Shown here: positions 14,476 to 38,158 of the stretch, piece by piece
Layout of the letters: every line of letters begins with the position of its first letter
Position numbering within the stretch: position 1 is the first letter of the stretch
Assembly: GCA_035221665.1 (NCBI GenBank)
Contig: CM069168.1
Location: 13,516,001 to 13,580,000 of the forward strand
DNA from: Okamejei kenojei
Lineage: Eukaryota
Length of the DNA stretch: 64,000 nucleotides
Direction: 5' to 3'
Translations under genes and position numbers: made by a program
The notes under the pieces: generated by a model
Database searches by the model: none
The model's input: the letters and a program-made list of their open reading frames with translations, nothing else
Told to the model about the DNA's origin: nothing

Positions 14476-14755
14476 TTAATTCACTTTGTCCTGGAATATA
14501 TACAGGTTGTTGGTTGTGGCTACGGCAATGATATTTTCCTTAGGGTGCCAGGCTGTGTGCAGGATCTTCTTGTTGAAGTCCAGACTATCAACACTAATCT
14601 CGTCCTTCTTCCTCTTGCCCCCTGAACACACCCTGCGTGGTTTCAGGATAGCCCGTGGTTTGCTGTTCTCTCTCGAAGCCTCTAGCGTAATGTCCCGTTT
14701 TGTGTTTCTATCGAACATTCTGAAGAAATTGTTGTACGACCCAGTCATGACAACA
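14476..14755 (-). CDS. PPP2R2A: PP2A B55-alpha, last coding exon (exon 10, 280 nt)
   Basis: TTTCAG acceptor, then (S)[29 protein letters not shown]...[23 protein letters not shown] and TAA at 14478-14476. [12 protein letters not shown] is alpha-type. Confidence 0.97.
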
Positions 14756-15183
14756 CTGAAAGTGGTAAAACAGTCAACCATTAGTAAATATACATAAGTT
14801 CATAGTTCATAAGTTCTAGGAGCAGAATTAGGCCAGTCGGCCGTCAAGTCTCCTCCGCCATTCATCATTGCTCTATCTTTCCCTCCCAACCCCATTCTCC
14901 TGCCTTTGCCCCATAACCACTGATGCCCTTATTAATCAAGACTGTCAATCTCCACCTTAAAAATATCAATTGAAATGAATTCCACCGATTCACCATCCTC
15001 TCTCTGACTAAAGACATTTACGCAGGTGTTAGTGAGTCATGTAGGGTTTTGCTGCAATATAAAATTCCAGCTTGGATTCTTAACACTTCACTGAGAAATA
15101 TGAGCCTTGCAGCTTCACTTTTATTAAATCCCCTCTTGGGTTTGAAAACCTGCTTGCTTATTTTGTACTACTCTTTCAAAGGT

Positions 15184-15617
15184 CAGGAATGGAACGGCTG
15201 GGCTTGTACACTCTGGAGTTTAGAAGGATGAGAGGGGATCTTATTGAAACATAAGATTGTTAAAGGTTTGGACACGCTAGAGGCAGGAAACATGTTCCTG
15301 ATGTTGGGGGAGTCCAGAACCAGGGGCCACAGTTAAAGAATAAGGGTTAAGCCATTTAGAACAGAGACGAGGAAACACTTTTTCTCACAGATAGTTGTGA
15401 ATCTGTGGAATTCTCTGCCTCAGAGGGCGGTGGAAGCAGGTTCTCTGCATGCTTTCAAGAGAGAGCTAGATAGGGCTATTAAAGATAGCGGAGTCAGGGG
15501 AAATGGGGAGAAGGCAGGAACGGGGTACTGATTGGGGATGATCAGCCATGATCACATTGAATGGCGGTGCTGGCTCTAAGGGCCGAATGGCCTACTTCTG
15601 CACCTATTGTCTATTGG
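15184..15617 (+). mobile_element. CR1-clade LINE 3' end in the last PPP2R2A intron
   Basis: ERLGLYTLEFRRMRGDLIETYKIVKGLDTLEAGNMF... followed by the family 3' tail cctattgtctattg. Confidence 0.85.
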
Positions 15618-16702
15618 ACCTTGTTGCAGCTCCCTACACCAGAACTCAAATGCACTAAACAGTACTGCACATGTTGGCCATTCAGCGACCTTATTGCAAT
15701 TACAATTCACTGGAGACCTTTTCACAGTAAAAAAATGCAAACTTTTATCTTCCCTTTTTTTAAATAATTTCCCATTTCCTCTTCTGAGAGACCATTCCTA
15801 CAACAGGGCCTTTGGAAGAGTCATAATCATGCTCTTTGCATTTATTTCTTAATGAATGACAATTTGAGATCAATATTTGCCAAACGCGGACAGGTGGGAC
15901 TAGTGTAGCTGGGACATGTTGGTCAGTATGGGCAAGTTGGGCCGAAGGGCTTGTTTCCATACTGTATTACTCTATACATGATCTTGAAATCAAACAAAAA
16001 CAAAACCTGCACATGGCAAGTGACAAGGCATTATGATTCAAAAGGCATATACTTGGAGTTTATGAAATAGTTTGTATCATAGACTGACCTAGATACCAAG
16101 GTTAAGAGAACCCATCTTCCAATACTCAGGGTATGCATCACCCCCACTACACCTTCCCCCACTTGCTCCCTCGAGAACCCAATTCCCCCATAATTGTTAA
16201 CTTCCATCATATCCAGCTTTCAGCATATTCATCAATATTTCTCCACCCACTCACCAGGGAAAGTGAGCATGACCATCACAGCAGAGGTATCATGGGAGCA
16301 GAGCCCTGGTAACTAGTACAAACCAGGGATCAATTAAAACAGCCCTCCTACCCAGTGGGAAGAGTCTTGGGCTCGCGCTTCATAGACTAGCTGGTAAACT
16401 GCAGACCCTGTAAAGCTTGGATATGGCTTTACCAAGTCTGCAAAGTGGCACTAACTTTATTCTTTCATTTCATCACCAGAACTCTCATCTCGAGTCAAAG
16501 GTGGCGCTGGCTAAATGTCATCATATTTCAAACAATTTTACAACTCGTGTAATCTGAACTTAATTGTCAAACTTTGGATCATCGTATCTGAAGCAGGATT
16601 CACACAGAAATCACCGGTCCCATGATATGTCATACAGAACCTAGATACCATTAGCAAGAACAGAACAGTTGAAGATCTCATTGAAGAAGAATCAGCTTTT
16701 AC

Positions 16703-16794
16703 CTATCGCATCCATTCCAACAACATTCGAACTTGTCAAAAATACAGTCGTTTTCATACAGTGAGCACAGTTTGCTTCGGAGGTATTCATGCAC
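16703..16794 (-). CDS. PPP2R2A: PP2A B55-alpha exon 9 (92 nt)
   Basis: TTACAG|[30 protein letters not shown](S)|GTAAAA; phases match both neighbours. Confidence 0.97.
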
Positions 16795-18287
16795 CTGTAA
16801 GAACAATTAATACGTCGATCTGAGTGAAATCCAGTCCGAGTTTTATACAAAACACATGGTCATAAATATACAAATATCTGGCTAACTGGCATGTCAATAG
16901 ATCCTTTAGAGTACTGATGGAGAGGAGGGGGCAGAAGTAGAGAAGAATAAAGTCACGAGAACAGGATTATCAACAAATATTATTTTCCCCTCTAAGTTAG
17001 CTTTAATTGGTAGTATTTTCACCAAAGTCAGAAGAATGAATGCTAACTCCATTACAAGAGCTAATTGGACAGGTTGGGACACATGGGTAAACACCATGCT
17101 ACTTTAGCGGGTGCTGTTTGTCCAATGCATGTTTTGTGGAATGTGACATTTTAACCCAAGTCAGAAGACTGAATGTTAGCTCCATTGCAGGACAGCTACA
17201 AATGAATGGATCAAGGAAGACGATGGCTGGAGACCTGTAGCAGCCTGGGTCTTGCCTGGATCGGGCACCACTCATACCAACTGGAGAGCGGACTGGTCTT
17301 TGATAATGGCGCCAAAACATGGCGTCTCTTGTATACGGGATCAGTAGACTTATTTTTGTACACTTGCTAATCGTGAATGTGCTTAGGAATGGGACTACTA
17401 TACTGGACTATATGTATGAAAAAAAGTTCACTGGATGACAATAAAAGCACATTTGAACTATTGAAAAAACTCCACATCAATAATGAAGATGCAGGGAGAT
17501 GTGTTGCACTTCGTACAATAAACTGAAAACTCGCCGATCTGTTCCAAGGGCCCAGTACACCACCCACAGCGATGCAAAAACAATAGCATAAAACATAACT
17601 AGTCATTGATATCGCGAATGTCCATAGGATCGTGCTGGGTGTAAATGTTTGCCATAGGTGCACGAAACAATGACAAGTTATTTAATGTTTTATGAAAAAT
17701 GGAACTATAAAGTATACAACTATAATATGAACTTTAAATATTTTCTAATCCCAGCATGGAAATATAAATTATCACCCAGAAGTAAAATTACACGCAGGCA
17801 TTGAGTGAAATTGCAGAAATATGAACGTGTTATTTGTCAAGTGCATTTTGCAAATTAGCTGGCAACTGTTCTTTCTGAGGCAAGTGTTAACATGAATAAA
17901 TCAGCTTTAATGCAAAAAGAATATTGTAACCAGAAAGACAAACATGTAATGCTAGCTATATTCTTGTTTCTAGTTACTATAACCAGCGTAGACAATTCCT
18001 GGTAGAAATTAATGTCCCAAATACGTCATTAACTGGCTGTGCCACTGAACAGGTTGGGAGACATTGGAAATGATTGTGCTGGTTTAGCAGGTTCTGTTTG
18101 TCTAATGGATTTTTAGGGAGGGTAACGGAAGCTTCATTCTCTACTGCACCCGTCTCAAGAATCATGAATTGTTAAAAAAAAAAAGTGCACTTGGCATCCA
18201 AGCCATAAAATTGATACACATAGAATTATCAAATAAACAGAGGACAACCTGTCAAGACAACACAGAAAATGGCAGGAGCCTGTGTAC

Positions 18288-18457
18288 CTGGTATGTCTCC
18301 ACAGGTCTACTTTCCATATTTAAGTCCCAGATTTTCACTGATAGGTAATCTCGTGTCATCATGTAACGACCACTGTGACTGAATTTGACGTCTGATATTG
18401 AAGAAATTATTTCTGAGAAGAACGACCTGTTGCTGGGATCTTCAGGTTCTTCAAACA
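18288..18457 (-). CDS. PPP2R2A: PP2A B55-alpha exon 8 (170 nt)
   Basis: CCAACAG|(L)[56 protein letters not shown]|GTACAC. Confidence 0.97.
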
Positions 18458-18661
18458 CTGTTGGAGGGAAAAGAAATGTTGGAAAGGTCCAGAAAGTTGA
18501 CAGGCTCCATTCTTATACTTTTTCCATTTGATAGCACCTAAATATTTGCCGCCAGCATTGTACCATATTCAACACCTCATATTCCACAGAAATATATTCA
18601 AGTCATACCAGTCAGCATCTGCATTGAACGGTACACTGCAAAAAAAAAATCAAATGCATGC

Positions 18662-18942
18662 TGGCACAGCAGGAGAGTTGCCACCCTACAGCGCCAGAGA
18701 CCTGGATTCAATCCTGACTGCATGTGCTGTCTCTACAGAGTTTGCACGTTCCCTGTGACTGCGTGGTTTTTCTCCATGTGCTCGGGTTTCCTCCCACACT
18801 CCAAAGACGTGAAGGTTTGTAGGCTAATTGGCGTGTAAATTGTCCCTAGCGTGTAGGATAGTGCTAATGTACGGGGTGATTACTGGTCGGCATGGACTCG
18901 GTAGGCCGAGGAGCCAATTTCCTTGCTGTAAAGTCTAAAGTC
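18662..18942 (+). mobile_element. tRNA-derived V-SINE (HE1-like)
   Basis: A/B-box-like head (ggcacagcagg...ggattcaatcc), V-domain-like core gggtttcctcccacactccaaagacg, and a taaagtc-repeat tail. Other copies at 32510-33383 (split), 41410-41634, 47290-47610 (minus) and 61975-62245. Confidence 0.75.
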
Positions 18943-19805
18943 ATGGAATAATAAAAATCAAAGTCCCCTTTTTAATCGCATTTGACCAGAAAACTAGGTG
19001 CTGCAATGTTCTACTTGCAGACATTCAGACCTATATGTTGGCAGACACCAACCGGGCTGTAAAGGTTTTCATAACTGCTAAAATGATTCTAATAGTTGAC
19101 CAGCTTTTTGGCTGCTCACCTCAGCACGTCGACATCTTGTAAACTAACAGGTGACCAGTTGACAGTCAGCAGATCAGATGCTGCTGAGTAGTGGTAGCCA
19201 TGTCACCACTTCAAAGGAACAAGAGTAACAAGTTGTTTCAAGGTTTTCAATGTGGTTTAACAGACTGACCACAGCCCTCCGAGTTCCAGTTCTACAGTGC
19301 TCCCACCAGGGATCTTTGAATTTCTTGACAAGCAAAGGGAAAAGTGAACTCTGAAGAACAAGGTTGGATGGTGGTACAAATGTACAGTTTCAGTCATTAT
19401 AAGCTTGTAGCACAAGGAAGGGAATGGAATAGTTGTGGAGTGGATGTTGTAGTGCATTATGATAATTTAGTGTTAATGTAGACAAAAGGGCAAGCTGTAA
19501 AAAGATCTTGGCCATCTGCTTGACTCGGAATACTGCAGGGCAGTACAAAGCAGGATTCAATTGCTCAAAACCATTTGGGGAAAAGCGAGCCAGTGCAGAT
19601 GCCTTGTTTGTGGTGGTGGCTGAGGAAATATCATTTAAAATGCCTTTGCAGTACTATATCAACGTGCTTCATGCTGAAAATCAAACTCATGACTCTCCTG
19701 TCTTTAGACTAATGCATAACTGAGAAGCCTAAAGCAAAGCGGCAAGATATAAAAACAAAAATACATTTGAGAAATAAATAGGGTCTGTCAAGCTAACATA
19801 TATGT

Positions 19806-19957
19806 ATTTAAGAAGGAACTGCATATGCCGGAAAATCAAAGGTAGACAAAAGTGCTGGAGGAACTCAGCGGGTGCAGCCGCATCTATGGAGCGAAGGAAA
19901 TCCTTCGCTCCATAGATGCTGCTGCACCCGCTGAGTTCCTCCAGCACTTTTGTCTAT
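19806..19957. mobile_element. Penelope-like end hairpin
   Basis: About 19842-19898 and 19901-19957 are inverted copies; 13-bp flanking direct repeat CTAACATATATGT (19793-19805, 19958-19970). Confidence 0.75.
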
Positions 19958-20151
19958 CTAACATATATGTTTTTCAGTTCCACTGTGTGCCTGCATATGG
20001 ACTGCAGCAGGTTGATAAATGTTAGTAATTACCGAACAATCTTGATCTGTTCTTGTTGTGCATTCAAATGAGTCAATTTTGAGCCATGTGAAAAGAGCAT
20101 TCATTGAAAACACAAATCACTAAAGCACAAATATCTGAGTCACAGACTTAC

Positions 20152-20316
20152 ATTTGGCATGTTTGTCACACAGGGCAGCTGCTCTCATGTCACACAGTCG
20201 AATGGTTCCCTTGCTACTGCTGTATACAAATGTGTTGCACTGATTAGGGTGGAATTCTGCTGCTGTGATCACTTCAGTCAGCTCCTCCATGTTAGCAGGC
20301 TTGATATCTACAATAT
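20152..20316 (-). CDS. PPP2R2A: PP2A B55-alpha exon 7 (165 nt)
   Basis: TCTCAG|(N)[54 protein letters not shown]|GTAAGT. Absent from the ORF track; translated by hand. Confidence 0.97.
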
Positions 20317-21803
20317 CTGAGACAGGCCATCAAGGATAATACAAGGCTTACCAGCCACACAAAATGACAACCTGGCCAAAGGATGGAAAAAGTCATCTTC
20401 AGCTTATGCATGCAACTGATCCTATAGAGTAGCCAATTTCTATAAAATTATAACTAAGAAAATAAACCTTATTAGAGCAAGATATAAATCAATGATTTCT
20501 GCAATATTCAACTCTGGATCAACATGAAACGGGAAAATAATCATCTCTTAATGAGTTTTCCATTACTTCACACAATCCAATTTCCATGGTTATAGATAGA
20601 TCTTACCTTTATATCTTTATAAAAACCTAACAGGTGTTTCCCTTTGCTTGTTGCAACCCGTTTCCTTCAAAGCTTGGTCAAATCAATTCTAAGAACAAAT
20701 AACTTAGGTTCCCATAAAATCAAACTGTGTAGGAGTGAACTGCCGATGCTGGTTTAAATCGAAGGTAGACACAAAAATCCAGAGTAACTCAGCGGGACAG
20801 GCAGCATCTCTGGAGAGAAGGAATGGGTGACTTTTCGGGTCGAGACCCTTCTTCAGACAAGTTGAGTTACTCTAGCTTTTTGTGTCTAAAATCAAAACTG
20901 CAACTGCCCAGGTTTCAAAGAAATCTGATTGTGTAAATCCCAAATCGTTGCTAATCCCAAGTCACAAGTCAACTTGTGCCAGCAGTTCACATTGCCTTTT
21001 TTGGTCTTCAGAACCGTACCCAAGTAAAAACTATCTGTTCACTTCAGGATTACAATAGCCTGTAACACCAGCACAAAAATTATCTATTGTCCATTTTACC
21101 AAATTGACCAATGTTAGTTTTACTCTGCCCAAGACAATTGGGCAGAGTAATGAACAATTTTCCTCACAGCAGATTCTGTCTAATTTGCTGAGCATTTCCA
21201 GTATTCTGTTTTATTTACAATTACTTTACTTTTCTTTTACAAGAACAAGTTAAGAGCTTTTTGTAGCTGTCTCAAACATAGTATACTGTGAAATACAGAG
21301 TCCAGGCAAGATTCCAAGAGCATGAGCCAAACTCTTTAGTGCAATAATGGTACTAGTCAGCAGCTAATGAAATTTTAACACTTTTTTTGACAAGAATGGG
21401 AGAAGTCAAAGATAAAATGTGCTATTAGATTAACTGTATATCCAATAATACTCCTGATGGTTTTAACGCCAGTTATTTTGAATTTCGGGTTGCAGGAGAC
21501 CAGCTGCGTGATCACATTTAATACAGGAATTTCAGCATTTGCCAAAGATTTGTTCTTGAAAGATCAGCAGAGCCATTAACCTGCCCTGACAGTCATGCAT
21601 ACTGGAGAGACTGGCTGCGATTCAAGCCAAAATATTCACCATCTGCCTTAGGATACAGAATGCAAGGTGTTGAACAATACCGACATAACAATGCGTGAAA
21701 AAAAAATCCTTTGTGCTTTCAAGTGAGATTAGGAACATTGCTGCCAAATAAAACATTTTGCCCCCCCCCCAAAAAAAGCAATCTGCCACATTGACAAGGA
21801 TAC
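20317..21803 (-). other. PPP2R2A: U12-type (minor spliceosome) GT-AG intron, 1487 nt
   Basis: Donor GTATCCTTG at 21803. Branch sequence TCCTTGAT at 20336-20329 with the A at position -14. No strong polypyrimidine tract. Confidence 0.9.
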
Positions 21804-21981
21804 TAAAACTTCTGTCTGTGATTTCTAAATGCCACAGGTTAATCCTAAGATCATCTGCTGATAAGTAAGTTTCATAGTCACTATTGACTGAAATAGAGTT
21901 TATATGATATGTGTGTGCATTAGCGAATATTCGTCGAGGACTTGCTTCAACCATTAAATCCATAGGTTTGAATACCGGCAC
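21804..21981 (-). CDS. PPP2R2A: PP2A B55-alpha exon 6 (178 nt)
   Basis: TTCTCAG|[59 protein letters not shown]|GTATCC. Confidence 0.97.
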
Positions 21982-23558
21982 CTGAGAATTAGAAAAAAAC
22001 AAGGTGTTAAAAGAATTTAAACAATGAAGAAACCCATCTAGAGAAAGGTACATCATTTTACAATACAACTCTGAAGGATTTTTGATATGAAACTTTAACA
22101 TTTTCTCTTTCTGCAGAGTTTTTCCAACATTTTCTGTTTATATATAACTTTTCAGTACATTTTTTTAAATAAATTAATTTCATGACAGTGCAAGGTACAC
22201 TGTGGCACAAGAGGAAGTCATCCTAGTGCTTATTTTTCAAAGCTAATGCCAGCTATTCATGCACAAAAAAGCCTTTAGGTGTCAAGGCCCAGTAGCTGTG
22301 GGACAAATTCTCTCATCTCTCCTCTCTAGTTTAAGATGTTCTCTGCAATGCCTCCAACCACAATTTCTGTCTTCTTGCACAATCAAGCAGAATATACTGC
22401 ATAAAAACAAGAGTCGAACAAATTCAAGTACTTCCTATTGGAAATGATCAATGTCTGTGTAAAACTTTTCCTTTCAGTTTTCCATTGATATCGCACATTG
22501 ATAGCACCTTGTTTTGCTCTTCAGGCTTGGAATCACACCCCTTGCACATTTTATCAGATCCATGAATACATTTATAGACCGCTGTTGGCTATCTCCATAG
22601 CTCTTTTCAAAAATAGTTGATTGCTGGGAACAGCGTATGAAACCAAATTCCATTTGAACCTCAATGAGGTTCAAATGACAACAAATAAATTGTATTGTAT
22701 TGTATTGACCCACATCAGCAAAAGAATAATGTGAAGGAGCCAGAGCATGCAAACAAGATTAAAAACCATCATGCAGGAACTGTGTAGGTGTACCCATTGG
22801 TAAAGTATTAACCATCTCTCAAACATGTTGGCAGCTGAAGAAGGACCTCTTTTGGGAAAATTAAAACCTGAAAGTTTCCTCAAGATGCGCAACTCTGAGG
22901 TGGGAGTGGATTGCCCACAAATCTTCACTGGAAGATAAGTCTAGGTAGAAGTACTGGAAATCCTCACTCATCAGGATTACATTTATGAAGATACTTGTAC
23001 AATGGTTCATTGCAGCAGTTCATTATTTCCAAGATTAATAAGGGTGGGACAATGCCAGCCTTGCCAACAATACCCCCATCCAACGAATTAATGAGCAAAT
23101 CATACTTCAGCCTTCTCCTTTCGCAATAGACCTGGCCTGTTCAACATTTCTTGATCTATTTGCAAGTTTCGAACCTGCAAACGTATCTGGAATGCTCTCC
23201 TTTTATATGGCATCCAAAACTATGCAGTGTAGCAGATGTACCTCACATGGCCTGGCATGGTTTTGTTTGAAAAGACTCCACAGGAGGTCTGAGACTTTTT
23301 GCTACAATATTGATGCCACTAAAGCATGTTTTGGACTTCAGGCCCTCAGAGTGTCACAGGTTGCCCAAATTGGGATACTGGACTTCAATATTAACAACAC
23401 AGGGTATCTTCCACAATTGGTGCCTTGAAGCCAGACCAAAACTGCCCTGGAATTTTCCTTTAACGATTTACCCAGATTTTACGACCAGAGTCAAAAACAA
23501 TGAAACATCCAAGATATGCTGGTGTATCCTTTGAAGCAATTTGCGCTCTAGATCTCAC

Positions 23559-23671
23559 CTTAAGCGTAGTGACTGTGGCAGGATCCCTATATCGACCATC
23601 CTCCTCCTTCAAATTATATCCTTCTGGCCGTTTATCTCTTTCACTGATTTTCCACAACTTTATTGTTTTAT
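23559..23671 (-). CDS. PPP2R2A: PP2A B55-alpha exon 5 (113 nt)
   Basis: TTCTTAG|(D)[37 protein letters not shown]|GTGAGA. Confidence 0.97.
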
Positions 23672-24736
23672 CTAAGAAAATAAATACAAAATTGCATTAA
23701 TAGAGAGGGGCAAATGAGCCTCTGGCATCCAAGTGTTGCATTACAGTTCTAAATGATTAAGGGAGGACATTTTAAAATGAACGCAATTGTGAAATGCAGG
23801 CATCTCATCCAGACCTGCCGTCTGCATAAACAAGGGTCTTGAGGAAACCTTTAATGATATCAATCTGGAATGTTAACTCACTGCAGCATAGCAAACACTG
23901 GAAGCAATGCTGCAATAAATATTAGCAAAGTCTAAATGCACTAGCGATGTAAAATGATAATTTCAGATCTATGCAAGAACACTCACAATACAATTTAGAA
24001 ACACAGAACTGCAGTATAGCAATGTTCTCTTTGAATCTTTAATATTTCCACAAAGAATTACGTATCTATCTATGAATTGGGAAAATTAATTTACTTTTAC
24101 AATATACTAGAGCAATAGCTTAAATTCATATAAGATTTATCCATCTATCAATGTCTCAAGTCATTTACCCACCAATATTTTCAAATGCAGTGATTTTATG
24201 TAGGCAAAGCTGGCTGCCATTTTTCACACAACAAATTCATTCAAAGCTATGTAGCTGATTGAAAGGATTTTGGCCAGAGGTGTTTTTCCAATTCCAGTAA
24301 AGGTGCAAAGGTGAGGCAGACCACAACCTGTAGTCTGCAGTATTTATTATTCAGAATCATTTCATCAGTGAATAATACAAACTATAGCCATTTGAGCATA
24401 ACGCAATGTGCTAGAGGAATTCAGCGGGTCAGGCAGCATCCGTGGAGGGAATACGACGTTTTGAGTCGGGACCCTTCTTCAGACTGATCCCGCCCCAAAA
24501 CAGTTTGTTCATTCCCCCCACTATAAGAAAACAAAAAACAGGGAAAGAAAACTGGCGGCTTGGGGAGATTAATGAGCGGGTAAACAGCATTTGAGAAATG
24601 AAACTTAAAAGTATTATAAAAGAGTCTACTGAAATCTACCATTAAAATTTGTCAGAATAGCTATTGTCCATTCTAAAAGGAAATGCAACCAGGGTTGCTG
24701 TGGTGAGCAAGTGAATGAAGTGAAGAAGGAACTCAC

Positions 24737-24902
24737 CATTTGTAGAGAGCAGGAACTGTGCAGCATTTTGCTGGGGTAACCATCTAATTTTATTGATCTT
24801 TTCTTCAATTTCTAAACTTTTCAAGTAGTCAAATTCTGGCTCATGACTCTGAAAAGTACTGTAAACATTATATTCACCTCTGCAATGAGGCTGGCTTTTG
24901 TT
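24737..24902 (-). CDS. PPP2R2A: PP2A B55-alpha exon 4 (166 nt)
   Basis: TTGCAG|[55 protein letters not shown]|GTGAGT. Confidence 0.97.
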
Positions 24903-26238
24903 CTGCAAGGAATAACAGAATAGATTAGAGCACCACAACTATGTTAAGCTAAAACCAACAAGATTTGTAACCTACAATGCAATCTACAGGTTCTTAAAAT
25001 CTAACTGTGCTGAAGGTATTTCTGCTTTTTTCTACTAACCAGATAAAGCAATGAATATAGAAGATAGACACAAAAGGCTGGAGTAACTCAGTGGGACAGG
25101 CAGCATCTCTGGAGAGAAGGAATGGGTGACGTTTCAGGTCAAGACCCTTCTTTAGACAAGATGAGTCTCGAGGAGGAGGAGCGTGGAAGTTGTCTATGGG
25201 AACGATCCAGCAGCCCTAGCTGCAGGTGGAAAATTCAACTCGCCGATTGGCTTGAGGTCGAGAATGGCCGTCGGACTGGCCTTTTGGGGGGGGACGGGGA
25301 CTTCCCGAGGAGGAGGAGGAGGCGGGAAAGCGTGGACCACCACTTGCCAGAAAACCGGTGGTCGACTTGTACATTACCTCTTTTGGCCGCACTTTGAATA
25401 TGTTAGTTGGGGGAGAAAACCGCCTCAAAATAAAGTTCCCACAGAAATCAATCTTTTTGCTTCACGATGGTATTCAAGCCACAATCCTAACCAATAAGTT
25501 CACAGCAGAGAATATGTTCTCTTATTGAACAAGTCATCAGATGTGGCTGCATACACCTCTTGTCAAGGCATTTCCTTCTGCAGCAAATGAAGCATCACTT
25601 GCTTCAAAACATGCATGGCCATTTCAGGTATATAAATCAGAAGAAAATACACTTAAATTGGCAAAAGATTTTCATTAAAAAAAAAGGAGCAGGTCTTCCT
25701 CATCAACTGAACACCCATTACTTCCGAATCTGGGTACCACCTCACAAGCAACCAATGTACACATGTAGCCACCATGTAATAAATTACATGGCCCAGAATG
25801 GAAGTTGCAATGAAAACACACAAATATGCTTCACATATAGACATGCCCAACCAAATTCAAAACACTGCAAAATGCCTTAGAAATGTTGCTGTGTTTCATC
25901 CCAGAGAGAATTTAAATGAATTCCAACTGATCTTCTGGACGGTTATGTTAATCGAACGAGATGAGTTAACATGAGCGATGTTCTTGGAACATAATTACCC
26001 GCATAAACCTGCAGGGTCAGGTGGTGGCAATATACTGGGAATTCTATGTAATTTCTTTTGCAAAACATTTCAGGTCAAACATAGATATCCATGCATCATC
26101 TATGAGGAATCAATATGCAAAATAAACAGTGACAAGACTTGCCAGGAATATTCCTTTGAACATGCCACCAATGAACTGCAGAAATAGCTAAATCAATTAC
26201 TTCATTTCAACTCGATGTGCTACACCGATAACACTCAC

Positions 26239-26336
26239 CTCCTGCTCCTGCTGGAATATGACGACTCTACCCCCCTTGTCCCCAGTTGCCAGTAGTTCTC
26301 CAGAGTGGTTAAATTCTACTGTGGAAATAACATCAG
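26239..26336 (-). CDS. PPP2R2A: PP2A B55-alpha exon 3 (98 nt)
   Basis: TTTACAG|(A)[32 protein letters not shown]|GTGAGT. Needs a phase-1 upstream exon. Absent from the ORF track; translated by hand. Confidence 0.96.
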
Positions 26337-29699: not shown

Positions 29700-30720
29700 C
29701 GGTGTATTGCAGAAATATTTCATTGGGGCAATGACATGTTAGATGGAGCAAGAAAGTGAGATAATTGGGGGAAAATGTGTGACCATTCAATTCCGTAGAA
29801 AGAGTAAAAGTGGGAGCAATTGTTAAGTATGAGAGATTGAAAGATATTGGTGTGCAGAGGGACCTAGGTATCTTTGTATATGAATTAGCAACAGTTAATA
29901 AGCAGGTACTGCAAGCCATTAGTAAGGCAAAGACTGAGTAACTCCAGCATTTTGTGTCTATCTTCAGTGTAAACGAGCACCTTCAGTCCTCTAACCAGTC
30001 TGGAGAAGGGTCTCGACCCGAAACGTCACCCATTCCTTCTCTCCAGAGATGCTGCCTGTCCTGCTGAGTTACTTGAGCTTTTTGTGTCAATCTTCAGTTT
30101 AAACCAGCATCTGCAGTTCCTTCCAACACATCTCCAGATCCTTGCTACACAAAGAGCATATTGACCTTTATTGCATGATCAGTTCACACTAAGAAACTGC
30201 ATCTTGCTGCAATTATAGACGTCCCCGGGCGAGACGTATAATTTTGAACTGGTCTGTTTTCCTACCCAAGGATCTCCTTCTGTAAGAAGGAGCTCAGCAA
30301 AGGTTAACCAGATTAATTCCAGAGAAGGCAGGTTTGTTATACGAAGAGAGATTAAACAGACTGGGCCTAAAGCCTCAATCTTGGATAAGAGGTGATCTCA
30401 TTAAAACATAAACTTCTTAAAGGGCTTGAGAGTGTTGATGTTTCCTTTAGCTAGGTTAACTAGCAGCGGGGGGGTCACAGTCTAAAAGTCTAAAAATAAA
30501 GTGTTGGCCATTCAGGGCAGGTGAGAAGAAATGTCTTGAATCTTTGCAAGGAATGTGGAGGCTCAGCAGCCGAGTTTGACAGATATTGGGATATTAAACG
30601 AGATACGAGGCTAAGCACATGTTAGCGGCATAAAAGGAAAACATCAGCTGTGATTTGATTGAATAGTGGAGTAACATGAAGGGCCCCATGGCCTACACCT
30701 ACTTTTAAATCCGTTCTTAA
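29700..30720 (+). mobile_element. Old CR1 LINE fragment interrupted by Penelope ends (about 29932-30130)
   Basis: QRDLGIFV..., RLNRLGL, RGDLIKT-like remnants and a CR1 tail. The Penelope tail has a CTGGAGA variant of the hammerhead motif at 30000-30027. Confidence 0.65.
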
Positions 30721-32588: not shown

Positions 32589-33207
32589 AGATTTAAGATT
32601 CAAGAGATTCAAGAGCTTATTGCAATGAATCCCTGATAGGGCAATGAAACATAGTGTGCATTGACTACAAAACAGATCAGTGTGTCCATATACCATTATA
32701 TAAATAAATACACACATGAATAAATAAACTGATAAAGTGCAAATAACAGATAATGGGCTATTAATGTTCAGAGATTTGTCAGAGCCAAGTTTAATAGCCT
32801 GATGGCTGTGGGGAAGTAGCTATTCCTGAACTTGGTCATTGCAGTCTTCAGGCTCCTGTACCTTCTACCTGAAGGTAGGAGGGAGATGAGTGTGTGGCCA
32901 GGGTGGTGTGGGTCCTTGATGATGCTGTCAGCCTTTTTGAGGCAGCGGCTGCGATACATCCCCTCGATGGAAGGAAGGTCAGAGCCGATGATGGACCGGG
33001 CAGTGTTTGCTACTTTTTGTAGTCTTTTCCTCTCCAGGGCGCTCAAGTTGCCGAACCAAGCCACGATGCAACCAGACAGCATGCTCTCTACTGTGCACCT
33101 GTAGAAGTTAGAGAGAGTCCTCCTTGACAAACCGACTCTCCATAATCTTCTCAGGAAGAAGAGGCGCTGATGTGCTTTCTTAATAATTGCATCAGTGTTC
33201 TCGGACT
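32589..33207 (-). mobile_element. Rex1/Babar-clade LINE 3' fragment nested in an HE1-like SINE
   Basis: Open frame LSNFYRCTVESMLSGCIVAWFGN...RKRLQKVANTARSIIG.DLPSIEGMYRSRCLKKADSIIKDPHHPGH...RRYRSL. The SINE head stops at about 32588 and resumes at about 33211. Confidence 0.85.
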
Positions 33208-35471: not shown

Positions 35472-37542
35472 TAAGGATCCTCAAATGTTGGTACTTCCAG
35501 CTGGTGATGAGTGTTGTGTGCACTAGATGGCTCAGTGTAATATTAACACTACAGACTGCATCGCTTGCCAGATTGCCAATTATGTCCCCATTGCTCCTAA
35601 ACATGGAAATCTCACTTATTGCAAACACACAAAGACGAATGACCTAAAACAGACTCCCTTTACGTAGTGCAACGTGTCATGCCAAAATGTTTAATATTTT
35701 TACAGAATTAGGAATTTTTATAAATGTTGTAAAGTGTTATACAAATGTTACCTGAAAATTACTAAGAATGGAGATAGACATAAAATGCTGGAATAACTCA
35801 ATGGGTGGCATCACCTATTCCTCCTCTCCGGAGATGCTGCCTGCCCCCCTGAGTTACTCCAGCATTTTGTATCTTCCATGTAAACCAGCACCTGTAGTTC
35901 CTTTCAACAAATTACTAACAATGGAGTCAGGCAGATTCCCAACCTTCCCTTGAACAGATCCCCACATCGCATTACCATCAACTGTAGTCCCCACATCCCC
36001 CATCTCTCCCACACGGCCACCAACCCCAATTCCTGAGCACAACCCCAGATACCAAGCCAATGTCCCAAATTGTAAAGCTCATCAAACCTCTTTCGCCAAT
36101 ATCAAAGTGTGTTCACCGCCCCGACTAGTGGCCGATCTGTAGCCAAATATACAGACAAATATGTCCGTAGGGATACCAAATTTTAGGAAAAGGTCCACCA
36201 GAAAATCCCAATTAAATACAAAAATATCAGGTTGTACAGCATCTATGGAACGAGAAACAGAGGGACTTCTTCAAGTTAAAGATCCTTCATCGCACTGATT
36301 CAACTCTAATACCCCAGTCAGGGTGTTGGCATTTTGTTTAGCCCGCACACATAAAGCCAAATGATTAACAACGAGAAAACAGAGCCTACATGTGATGGCA
36401 GAATAGAAAAGTGCAATGAGAAAATTGTCCTGAATTTCAATGTTACTTTCATATCAACGACTTTGATGAAAAGTTATTTTAATCAAACATTTGGAACAGT
36501 TGGGGGCTCAATGACAGTGAAGCAAAGATAACTTCTGTACTTATGATGTGATAATGTTTCGAATCACTCCCACCAGGACTAATTTGATCTTACGGTTAAA
36601 TAGTTCAAAATACCGTCAAAATTGATGTTGAGAATCTAGGATTTGAATACTGGTCAGGTTTCACTATTTTAGTGTACACAGTTATCAATATTCAAACCTA
36701 CACAGCAATTGACATCATTAGTTAAACACGAGTTGTCACTGAAGATATAACTTAAATCCCAAGAGAGGGCAGGATTTTTCTTTTCAACTTTCTTGAAATA
36801 ATATCTGAAATATTCTGAGATGAAAGCTATGAAATATACTCCTCCTCTCTTCCCCACCCCCTACCCCCACTCTCCAATTCAAATGAAAGGCTTGGATTCC
36901 CAAAGTCAATGTATCTCTGTGTAGCCCAGGGGAAAATACGATGAAAACAAAGTCCACGTCATCCATTCACCTAAATATTGATTACATGATGTGTTTGTAA
37001 CAAAGCTTCTCTTCACTCTTCATAAGCCCTGGACGACAACTCAGGGTAGCAGTTTGCCTCATTCACAGGATAGTCCACTGACATCCAGCCACACTAATAT
37101 GGTCATAAGGAACAGGAGTAGAATTAGGCCATTCGGCCCATCAAGTCTACTCTGGCTGATCTATCTCTCCTTCCTAACCCCATTCTCCTGCCTTCTCCCA
37201 ATAACCTCCGACACCTGCACTAATCAAGAATCTATTGATCTCTGCCTTTAAAATATCCACTGACTTAGCCTCCACAGCCTTCTGCGGCAAAGAATTCCAT
37301 AAATTCACCACCGTCTGACTAGACATTTCTCCTCATCTCCTTCCTTAAAGAATGTCCTTTAATTCTGAGGCTTTGACCTCTAGTCCTAGACTCCCAATAA
37401 TCAGTGCAAGACTGTTCATTAAGCTAACTAACAAAACATGTTCACTGGCAGTTTGCTTGCATCAAGAAGGAAGACATGCACAATAGATGTTACATTGTCA
37501 TAATAAAACCCACATCTTACCAAAAAAATGAACATCCCATAC

Positions 37543-37633
37543 CTTGGTTATAGGGTGAAGTGGACATCAGCGCATTGAGGCCAGAGAATGACGATTTGAT
37601 TGAATAGGGGAAATGACAGTGAAAGCATTTCAT
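37543..37633 (-). CDS. PPP2R2A: Candidate alternative first coding exon of PPP2R2A encoding a Bbeta2-like N-terminal leader
   Basis: AAG-ATG (A at -3), 30 codons plus 1 nt: MKCFHCHFPYSIKSSFSGLNALMSTSPYNQ, then AAG|GTATGG donor. Phase 1 gives G+CT = Ala with exon 3. Similar to recalled Bbeta2 MKCFSRYLPYIFRPPNTILSSSCHTE. Confidence 0.75.
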
Positions 37634-38158
37634 CTTCTGCAGTATACCGATATGCTGCTGGAGTTTCATTTATTAACACCACACCCCAAAACAAGGAGTA
37701 AGCCCTTCTATCTATCCATTTGTACGGTTCCAATTAATAACGGAAACTGTAGACTCTTGTCCTGCAATGGGGGAGCGTGTGGCCTAAATGCATACAAAAC
37801 AACCTCTGTCCCTCTTTTCATCTTCTGCCTAGTTTGCGTTTCTTAAAAAACAGCAACCCTTTGACTGGAGGAGCCTTTTGGAAGAGGGGGGAGGGAGGAA
37901 ATCAGCTACCCGCACTGTAAAGAATTATCTGTAAAATGCGGAATTCAGCTGCCTGTATCTGCAGCACCGGTATTCAAACTCGATGCTGTTTAACTCTGAC
38001 ATTGAGCTCCTTTCCCAGATACAGCAGCAATCCAAAATTAAAAGGACGATGGCTTCCTGCAAAAAGTCGATGGTTTTCCCCATCCCTAGAAGTGCCAGCC
38101 TTTATGGCATTGAACACTGAAAGAGCATAATCCTGCTGTGCTTATATCAAGGTCAAAG

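Follow-up and report, generated by a model that had tools for sequence, protein, structure and literature searches.

A probable alternative leader exon in PPP2R2A of Okamejei kenojei resembling the mitochondrial Bβ2 leader of PPP2R2B

The DNA analysed here is a stretch of 64,000 nucleotides from Okamejei kenojei (contig CM069168.1, positions 13,516,001 to 13,580,000), referred to as the window in the following. Its minus strand carries the propeller-coding body of a B55 gene, PPP2R2A, and the beginning of a BNIP3-family gene (Table 1). Because the latter directly follows PPP2R2A, the direct neighbour is a mitophagy receptor gene, by its motifs probably BNIP3L rather than BNIP3; a BNIP3-family neighbour is also present in a teleost fused model (P0111). 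Since the canonical exons 1 and 2 are found beyond the right end of the window, the leader exon described here is situated inside a PPP2R2A intron 2 of 43 kb. Introns in the window also contain a frame fragment at 32771-33205 (minus strand), presumably of a LINE-type reverse transcriptase, and copies of short interspersed repeats of 60-100 nt (e.g. 25060-25157, 29998-30095 and 35811-35912), both of an ordinary kind.

From the letters alone, an earlier note had proposed a 91-nt ATG-to-donor unit joining exon 3 in phase from a distance of 11.2 kb, and this arrangement was recovered. The ATG is located at 37633 and opens 30 codons followed by one G, which end at 37543 in phase 1. An intron of 11,206 nt separates this G from the start of exon 3 at 26336, which is preceded by a pyrimidine tract and CAG. 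As the note had also stated, acidic residues are missing from the leader (0, with seven Ser/Thr), and a second donor-like site 22 nt further on (37521) would shift the frame: joined to exon 3 it leads to a stop after 38 codons. In a DNA-level search the leader was single-copy in the 2.76-Gb genome.

The main ATG has A at -3. Use of the upstream in-frame ATG at 37669, which the earlier note does not mention, would yield a leader of 42 residues with four basic residues. An unnamed, unspliced open reading frame found in the protein searches (P0191) has seven basic residues in this form; six of the 12 extension residues, the Met included, are identical there, and the Met is at the same place. Since P0191 keeps the upstream Met, half of the extension and the read-through of the donor, a 42-residue form beside the 30-residue form is plausible. 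The leader might also follow a non-coding exon; Table 1 lists a tentative candidate acceptor for this case, of which no counterpart was found in PPP2R2D.

Table 1 Features of PPP2R2A, its neighbour and the PPP2R2D leader (positions without prefix refer to the window, which lies on C38)
Feature	Position	Strand	Remarks
BNIP3-family gene, first coding exon	2-55	minus	more exons at C38:13501700-13508600; same strand, follows PPP2R2A
PPP2R2A body, exons 3-10, WD40 propeller	14479..26336	minus	
PPP2R2A exon 3, shared acceptor exon	26239..26336	minus	
Second donor-like site TTG/GTAAGA	37515..37520	minus	113-nt exon ending at 37521; absent from delta
5' splice site AAG/GTATGG, conserved	37537..37542	minus	delta AAG/GTACGG, beta2 AAG/GTAGTG, same phase; read-through G-M-G in P0191 and P0195
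Coding part of alternative first (leader) exon	37543..37633	minus	30 codons + 1 nt, phase-1 end; equal-length paralog exon, codon-position signature, sauropsid homologs
25-nt block around main ATG	37621..37645	minus	no difference between alpha and delta; Bβ2 leader matches the inner 16 nt
Upstream in-frame ATG and 12 extra codons	37634..37669	minus	T at -3, a weak context for initiation; predicted leader of 42 aa, more basic
Pyrimidine tract and AG	37874..37896	minus	~241 nt upstream of ATG; candidate acceptor if leader follows a non-coding exon
Canonical PPP2R2A exons 1-2	C38:13586183 and C38:13585760		~6 kb past the window's right end, at CpG island
PPP2R2D leader exon, 91-nt ATG-to-GT unit	C15:13641082-13641172	minus	intron 2, 17 kb above exon 3; second candidate isoform

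Four B55 loci are intact in the genome, the window gene on C38 and one gene each on C15, C11 and C1. A first tree was calculated from exons 3, 5, 8 and 10 (215 columns, 27 rows). The window gene grouped with the named B-alpha proteins (support 100/97) and the C11 gene with beta. The C15 gene was placed among named delta rows at an open fork, and each named delta row is closest to it by identity. An exon-10 signature of the human B-alpha chain is common only to the window paralog. The earlier note had assigned the body exons to alpha and had named a placement with beta as the result that would speak against it; when such a clade was forced, it was rejected (p-AU 3.5e-5, 18 rows). The data neither establish nor reject a clade of alpha and delta (p-AU 0.096). 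The window gene branches at the base of the alpha clade (support 93/68 in the first tree and 70/15 in the 18-row tree), which fits a cartilaginous fish weakly. The phylogeny and the signature thus identify the window gene as PPP2R2A.

Exon 2 is present in all four genes. Those on C11 and C1 (beta and gamma) carry in addition an acidic first exon, presumably of the Bβ1/gamma type and matching UniRef rows P0096 and P0167; an exon of the Bβ1 type was found only in these two genes here and in neither alpha nor delta. Two further regions are indel-rich: a partial PPP2R2D duplicate at C15:13554001-13569524, 91% identical over ~15.5 kb and next to an assembly gap, and a partial duplicate of PPP2R2B exons 8 and 10 at C11:68410385-68435471. 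Misassembly or pseudogenic duplication is the probable cause of both. Upstream of the PPP2R2B exon-2 homolog (C11:69043370-69043830) there are four partial copies of ~92 bp in tandem; each contains an acceptor-like sequence and no donor, and they may represent a real duplication or an assembly stutter.

Searching the genome with the 30-residue leader revealed two matches, the alpha leader itself and the unit in PPP2R2D, and the reciprocal search agreed. The two leaders are identical in 18 of 30 residues. At codon positions 1, 2 and 3, identity amounts to 19, 26 and 14 of 30, compared with 30, 31 and 15 of 32 in exon 3 as a control. Third positions have diverged to the same degree in the leader and in exon 3, which speaks against a recent conversion. 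Apart from ~15 nt before the ATG, the flanks show background identity. In delta, an out-of-frame ATG at -37 opens an overlapping frame of 24 codons; the 1-nt offset is either real or an assembly indel. The partial PPP2R2D duplicate stops short of the leader. With an equal-length paralog exon of this kind at hand, the alpha leader is very probably a real and old exon under coding constraint, and its transcript is likely to be expressed and spliced to exon 3.

Homologs were also detected outside this genome. Among the best 120 of 3198 proteins obtained with exon 7, the models KAG8141335.1 of Naja naja and OXB74824.1 of Colinus virginianus have a homologous 30-mer at their N-terminus, followed by an alpha body, and both were placed in the alpha clade of the 27-row tree. 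A search with the Naja N-terminus (two of seven candidates) yielded a third model, POI31241.1 of Bambusicola thoracicus. All three are automated entries labelled 'hypothetical' or 'putative', and two are visibly mispredicted in the body. Their leaders are 43-50% identical to that of the window, and the models start at the second Met. Two join exactly at Q/A-D-I-I-S, the Colinus model via 21 extra residues. The exon, called hidden in the earlier note, is therefore already contained in automated GenBank models. Its survival in PPP2R2A of this lineage, as the note had it, is right for the gene and too narrow in scope, considering PPP2R2D of the same genome and the snake and bird PPP2R2A models. 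Among the retrieved proteins, 90 possess an N-terminus ahead of exon 3; three of these carry the alpha leader and one (Terrapene) the Bβ2 leader. No alpha leader occurred in the teleost alpha rows retrieved, a small sample not designed for testing absence.

A HMMER profile search of 1.84 billion representatives (50% representatives) gave five matches, two of which are homologs. The leader in P0191 is near the bird type. P0195, apparently a decayed alpha leader, has other residues in place of the two Met and the two Cys and retains the C-terminal half and the donor read-through. The repetitive open reading frames P0193 and P0194 were judged to be chance matches. None of 22 candidates from a word-index protein search with the two-leader alignment was homologous. 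Scans of JGI metagenomes produced 62 and 82 motif matches and no confirmed homolog; the best of 80 screened matches has an in-frame stop and no donor. A search of the ESM Atlas with the leader returned no usable match.

The leader of neuronal Bβ2, the known alternative N-terminus encoded by PPP2R2B and associated with outer-membrane localisation and Drp1 dephosphorylation, is the obvious object of comparison. A 7-residue motif matched three times in the genome, once in the C11 gene. The Bβ2 leader found there is a 79-nt exon of 26 residues with a phase-1 donor, and it matches the Terrapene protein and the Bβ2 peptide printed in PMC2810296; that paper names the 24-mer Bβ1, apparently in error. 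The order in PPP2R2B is exon 2, Bβ2 leader, Bβ1 exon, exon 3. Hence, the intron that houses the Bβ2 leader corresponds to that of the alpha and delta leaders, and all three agree in phase and in a stretch of 16 nt around the ATG. Like the alpha leader, Bβ2 (PMC11780858) is specified by an alternative first coding exon between exons 2 and 3 with a phase-1 join, so that the splice point is common to both, as claimed before. Both also start with M-K-C-F and have a Ser/Thr cluster five to seven residues before the junction. The alpha leader differs from Bβ2 in that it occurs in PPP2R2A and PPP2R2D, is 30 (or 42) rather than 26 residues long, and has Cys6 instead of Arg6.

The seven ungapped identities counted earlier among the first 19 residues of the alpha and Bβ2 leaders are correct as a number. 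L19 does not stay in register, as the two leaders are four residues apart in length (91 versus 79 nt), and P9 and Y10 are absent from delta and from the three sauropsid leaders. The exchanges noted at positions 13 (Arg to Lys) and 6 (Arg to Cys) were found as described, and Cys6 is invariant in the alpha/delta class.

Chance similarity was assessed with 4050 ATG-to-GT phase-1 units from 664 kb around the four B55 genes, scored against the Bβ2 leader of this genome. The top scores were those of alpha (40) and delta (33); the best unrelated unit reached 20 (mean -14.6, sd 8.5), and none of 20,000 shuffles attained the alpha or delta score. A two-sequence Bβ2 profile matched the alpha leader weakly (7.7 bits, E 0.64), and the sauropsid alpha leaders scored 16-19 against Bβ2, inside the unrelated range. 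Since these profile and sauropsid scores are weak, homology rests on position, phase, start block and C-terminal register jointly, and on these grounds the alpha leader appears homologous to the Bβ2 leader with high probability. As argued by the PPP2R2D exon, the sauropsid homologs and the intron, phase and 16 nt shared with the Bβ2 leader, the leader predates the B55 paralog duplications, in agreement with the age given in the earlier note. The simplest history, we infer, is one ancestral leader in a single vertebrate B55 gene that was kept in alpha, delta and beta.

No leader was detected in PPP2R2C when 230 kb (C1:45,688,001-45,918,000) were searched by profile, motif and blastn. The sequence M-K-C-F at C1:45750468 is in the right PPP2R2C intron; it lacks the surrounding context of the leader and failed to rank. 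No support was found for a leader that arose from exon 2 by duplication (profile similarity probability 0.3%). Bβ1 and B-gamma leaders differ from the alpha leader as well, being acidic (5-6 D/E) and unrelated to it.

Bβ2 offers a precedent for what such a leader could do. According to PMC11780858, its N-terminus directs PP2A to the outer mitochondrial membrane by binding to the TOM complex, and phosphorylation of Ser20-22 releases it. By homology, the following sequence of events can be proposed for alpha. An internal promoter in PPP2R2A intron 2 would start a transcript with the leader as first coding exon, and splicing in phase to exon 3 would replace the N-terminus of B-alpha encoded by exons 1 and 2. 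The replacement would be an unstructured localisation peptide of 30 residues, or 42 by leaky scanning, which would work like the Bβ2 leader and engage TOM while the folded propeller resists import. PP2A-B-alpha would thereby be parked on the outer mitochondrial membrane, until phosphorylation of S24/T25/S26, the counterpart of Bβ2 Ser20-22, switches parking off.

Features of the peptide bear on this proposal in different ways. In a gapped alignment of sequences only, Ser20-22 of Bβ2 aligns with S24-T25-S26 of the window and delta leaders; the cluster is S-V-S in birds, with two of three residues kept, and is lost in Naja. The alpha/delta class conserves C3-F4-x-C6-x-F8, K13, L22-M23 and Q30, and Arg is found in one of six leaders. 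The Arg-bearing amphipathic N-terminus (Arg6, Arg13) is thus absent from the window leader, which has Cys6 and Lys13. Targeting by Bβ2 presumably requires Arg6; a literature search found no paper on this requirement. The best hydrophobic moment over 11 residues is 0.40-0.50 for the alpha/delta 30-mers (window 0.40) and 0.43 for the 42-residue form, compared with 0.77 for both Bβ2 leaders; the alpha/delta values are no higher than those of the non-mitochondrial Bβ1, gamma and canonical alpha N-termini (0.42-0.68). Since one defining targeting feature of Bβ2 is missing, the alpha leader was not classed as a mitochondrial signal. Of the candidate mitochondrial targeting put forward in the earlier note, the phosphorylation cluster therefore has its counterpart, and the Arg residues and the strong moment do not. 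Putative parking of PP2A-B-alpha on the outer membrane by a Bβ2-like leader is put at slightly less than even probability and is preferred over the readings below.

The conserved residues could also indicate a different anchor. Four of ten invariant columns in all five alpha/delta leaders are C3, F4, C6 and F8, and these four are kept in P0191. N-terminal di-cysteine motifs are acylated in PSD-95 and GAP-43. Palmitoylation of a Phe-flanked Cys3/Cys6 pair could tether PP2A-B-alpha and -delta to the Golgi, the plasma membrane or ER-mitochondria contacts, and Arg-dependent targeting to TOM would then be specific for beta. The loss of both Cys in the apparently decayed P0195 and the lack of conservation of Arg and of strong amphipathicity in alpha/delta leaders are in line with S-acylation. 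Bβ2, however, is mitochondrial although it has C3-F4 too, there is no Gly2 for myristoylation, and a literature search on B55 palmitoylation, judged by title and start of abstract, revealed nothing relevant. S-acylation of the leader appears rather unlikely.

Alternatively, what the isoform loses may matter more than what it gains. By construction, the leader isoform is without exactly the exon-2 segment, which the leader, given the profile comparison with exon 2 above, would not replace by a similar one. In PMC12675759, the N-terminus of Ppp2r2a is reported to complete a propeller blade, and deletion of 26 residues (delta-N26) to cause a new enrichment at the axon initial segment. Bβ1 and B-gamma, by their first exons, and delta-N26 resemble the leader isoform in lacking the exon-2 strand, and in all of these the propeller is predicted to be open. 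A naturally open ('notched') B-alpha propeller could thus be directed to the axon initial segment or to notch ligands, with fine-tuning by the leader. AlphaFold2 models of strand closure had mean pLDDT values of 42.5 and 48.0; in the canonical control, too, the strand was not placed. The conserved leader length, the Cys pair and the C-terminal block would remain unexplained by strand loss, and a leader can override the notch, since Bβ2 also lacks exon 2 and yet is mitochondrial (PMC12675759). A dominant effect of strand loss is considered markedly unlikely. Least likely of all, and improbable, is that the exon is untranslated or unproductive, be it a regulatory upstream ORF, a nonsense-decay exon via the second donor or a relic: the block conserved partly upstream of the ATG, the frameshifting second donor, the out-of-frame delta ATG overlapping the start, the decay evident in P0195 and the low count of alpha-type leaders among the 90 proteins could be read in this way, but the ranking of codon positions (26 > 19 > 14), the exon length and phase fixed across paralogs and taxa, and the conservation of the productive donor speak against it. 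Bβ2-like parking, S-acylation and strand loss are not mutually exclusive.

Bβ2 has been regarded as the sole mitochondria-targeted B55 subunit and as a neuron-specific novelty of PPP2R2B. With homologous leaders under coding constraint in PPP2R2A and in PPP2R2D, the module is placed before the paralog duplications, and non-mammalian vertebrates, birds included, are predicted to have two further re-targeted holoenzymes of PP2A. No alpha isoform with such a leader is known from mammals. No description of an alpha or delta leader isoform was found in the open full-text literature, mostly judged by title and start of abstract and including PMC11780858, PMC2810296, PMC6566066 and PMC12675759; Supplemental Fig. 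S2C of PMC11780858, on isoforms of PPP2R2B, may be relevant to the conservation of the leader. The data suggest leader-bearing, re-targeted forms of PP2A that were hitherto undescribed. In its widest version, which is doubtful, a leader directing the protein to an organelle would already have belonged to the ancestral vertebrate B55, and leader-bearing B-alpha and B-delta (30 or 42 residues, dual Cys, phospho-switch) would still be made by jawed vertebrates other than mammals. PP2A-B55 of the widely expressed, cell-cycle type would thereby be placed on mitochondria outside neurons. The exon would have decayed in some lineage (P0195) and possibly in mammals, and Bβ2 would be the one survivor seen in work on mouse and human. 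The change from Arg6 to Cys6, the 12-residue extension and the loss of the strand form a comparative series for B55 N-termini that are mitochondrial, acylated or bound to the axon initial segment. PPP2R2C has likewise retained an intact homolog of exon 2 (C1:45745629-45745700), 91 kb above the first exon that this gene normally uses, and a closed-propeller gamma isoform may exist here.
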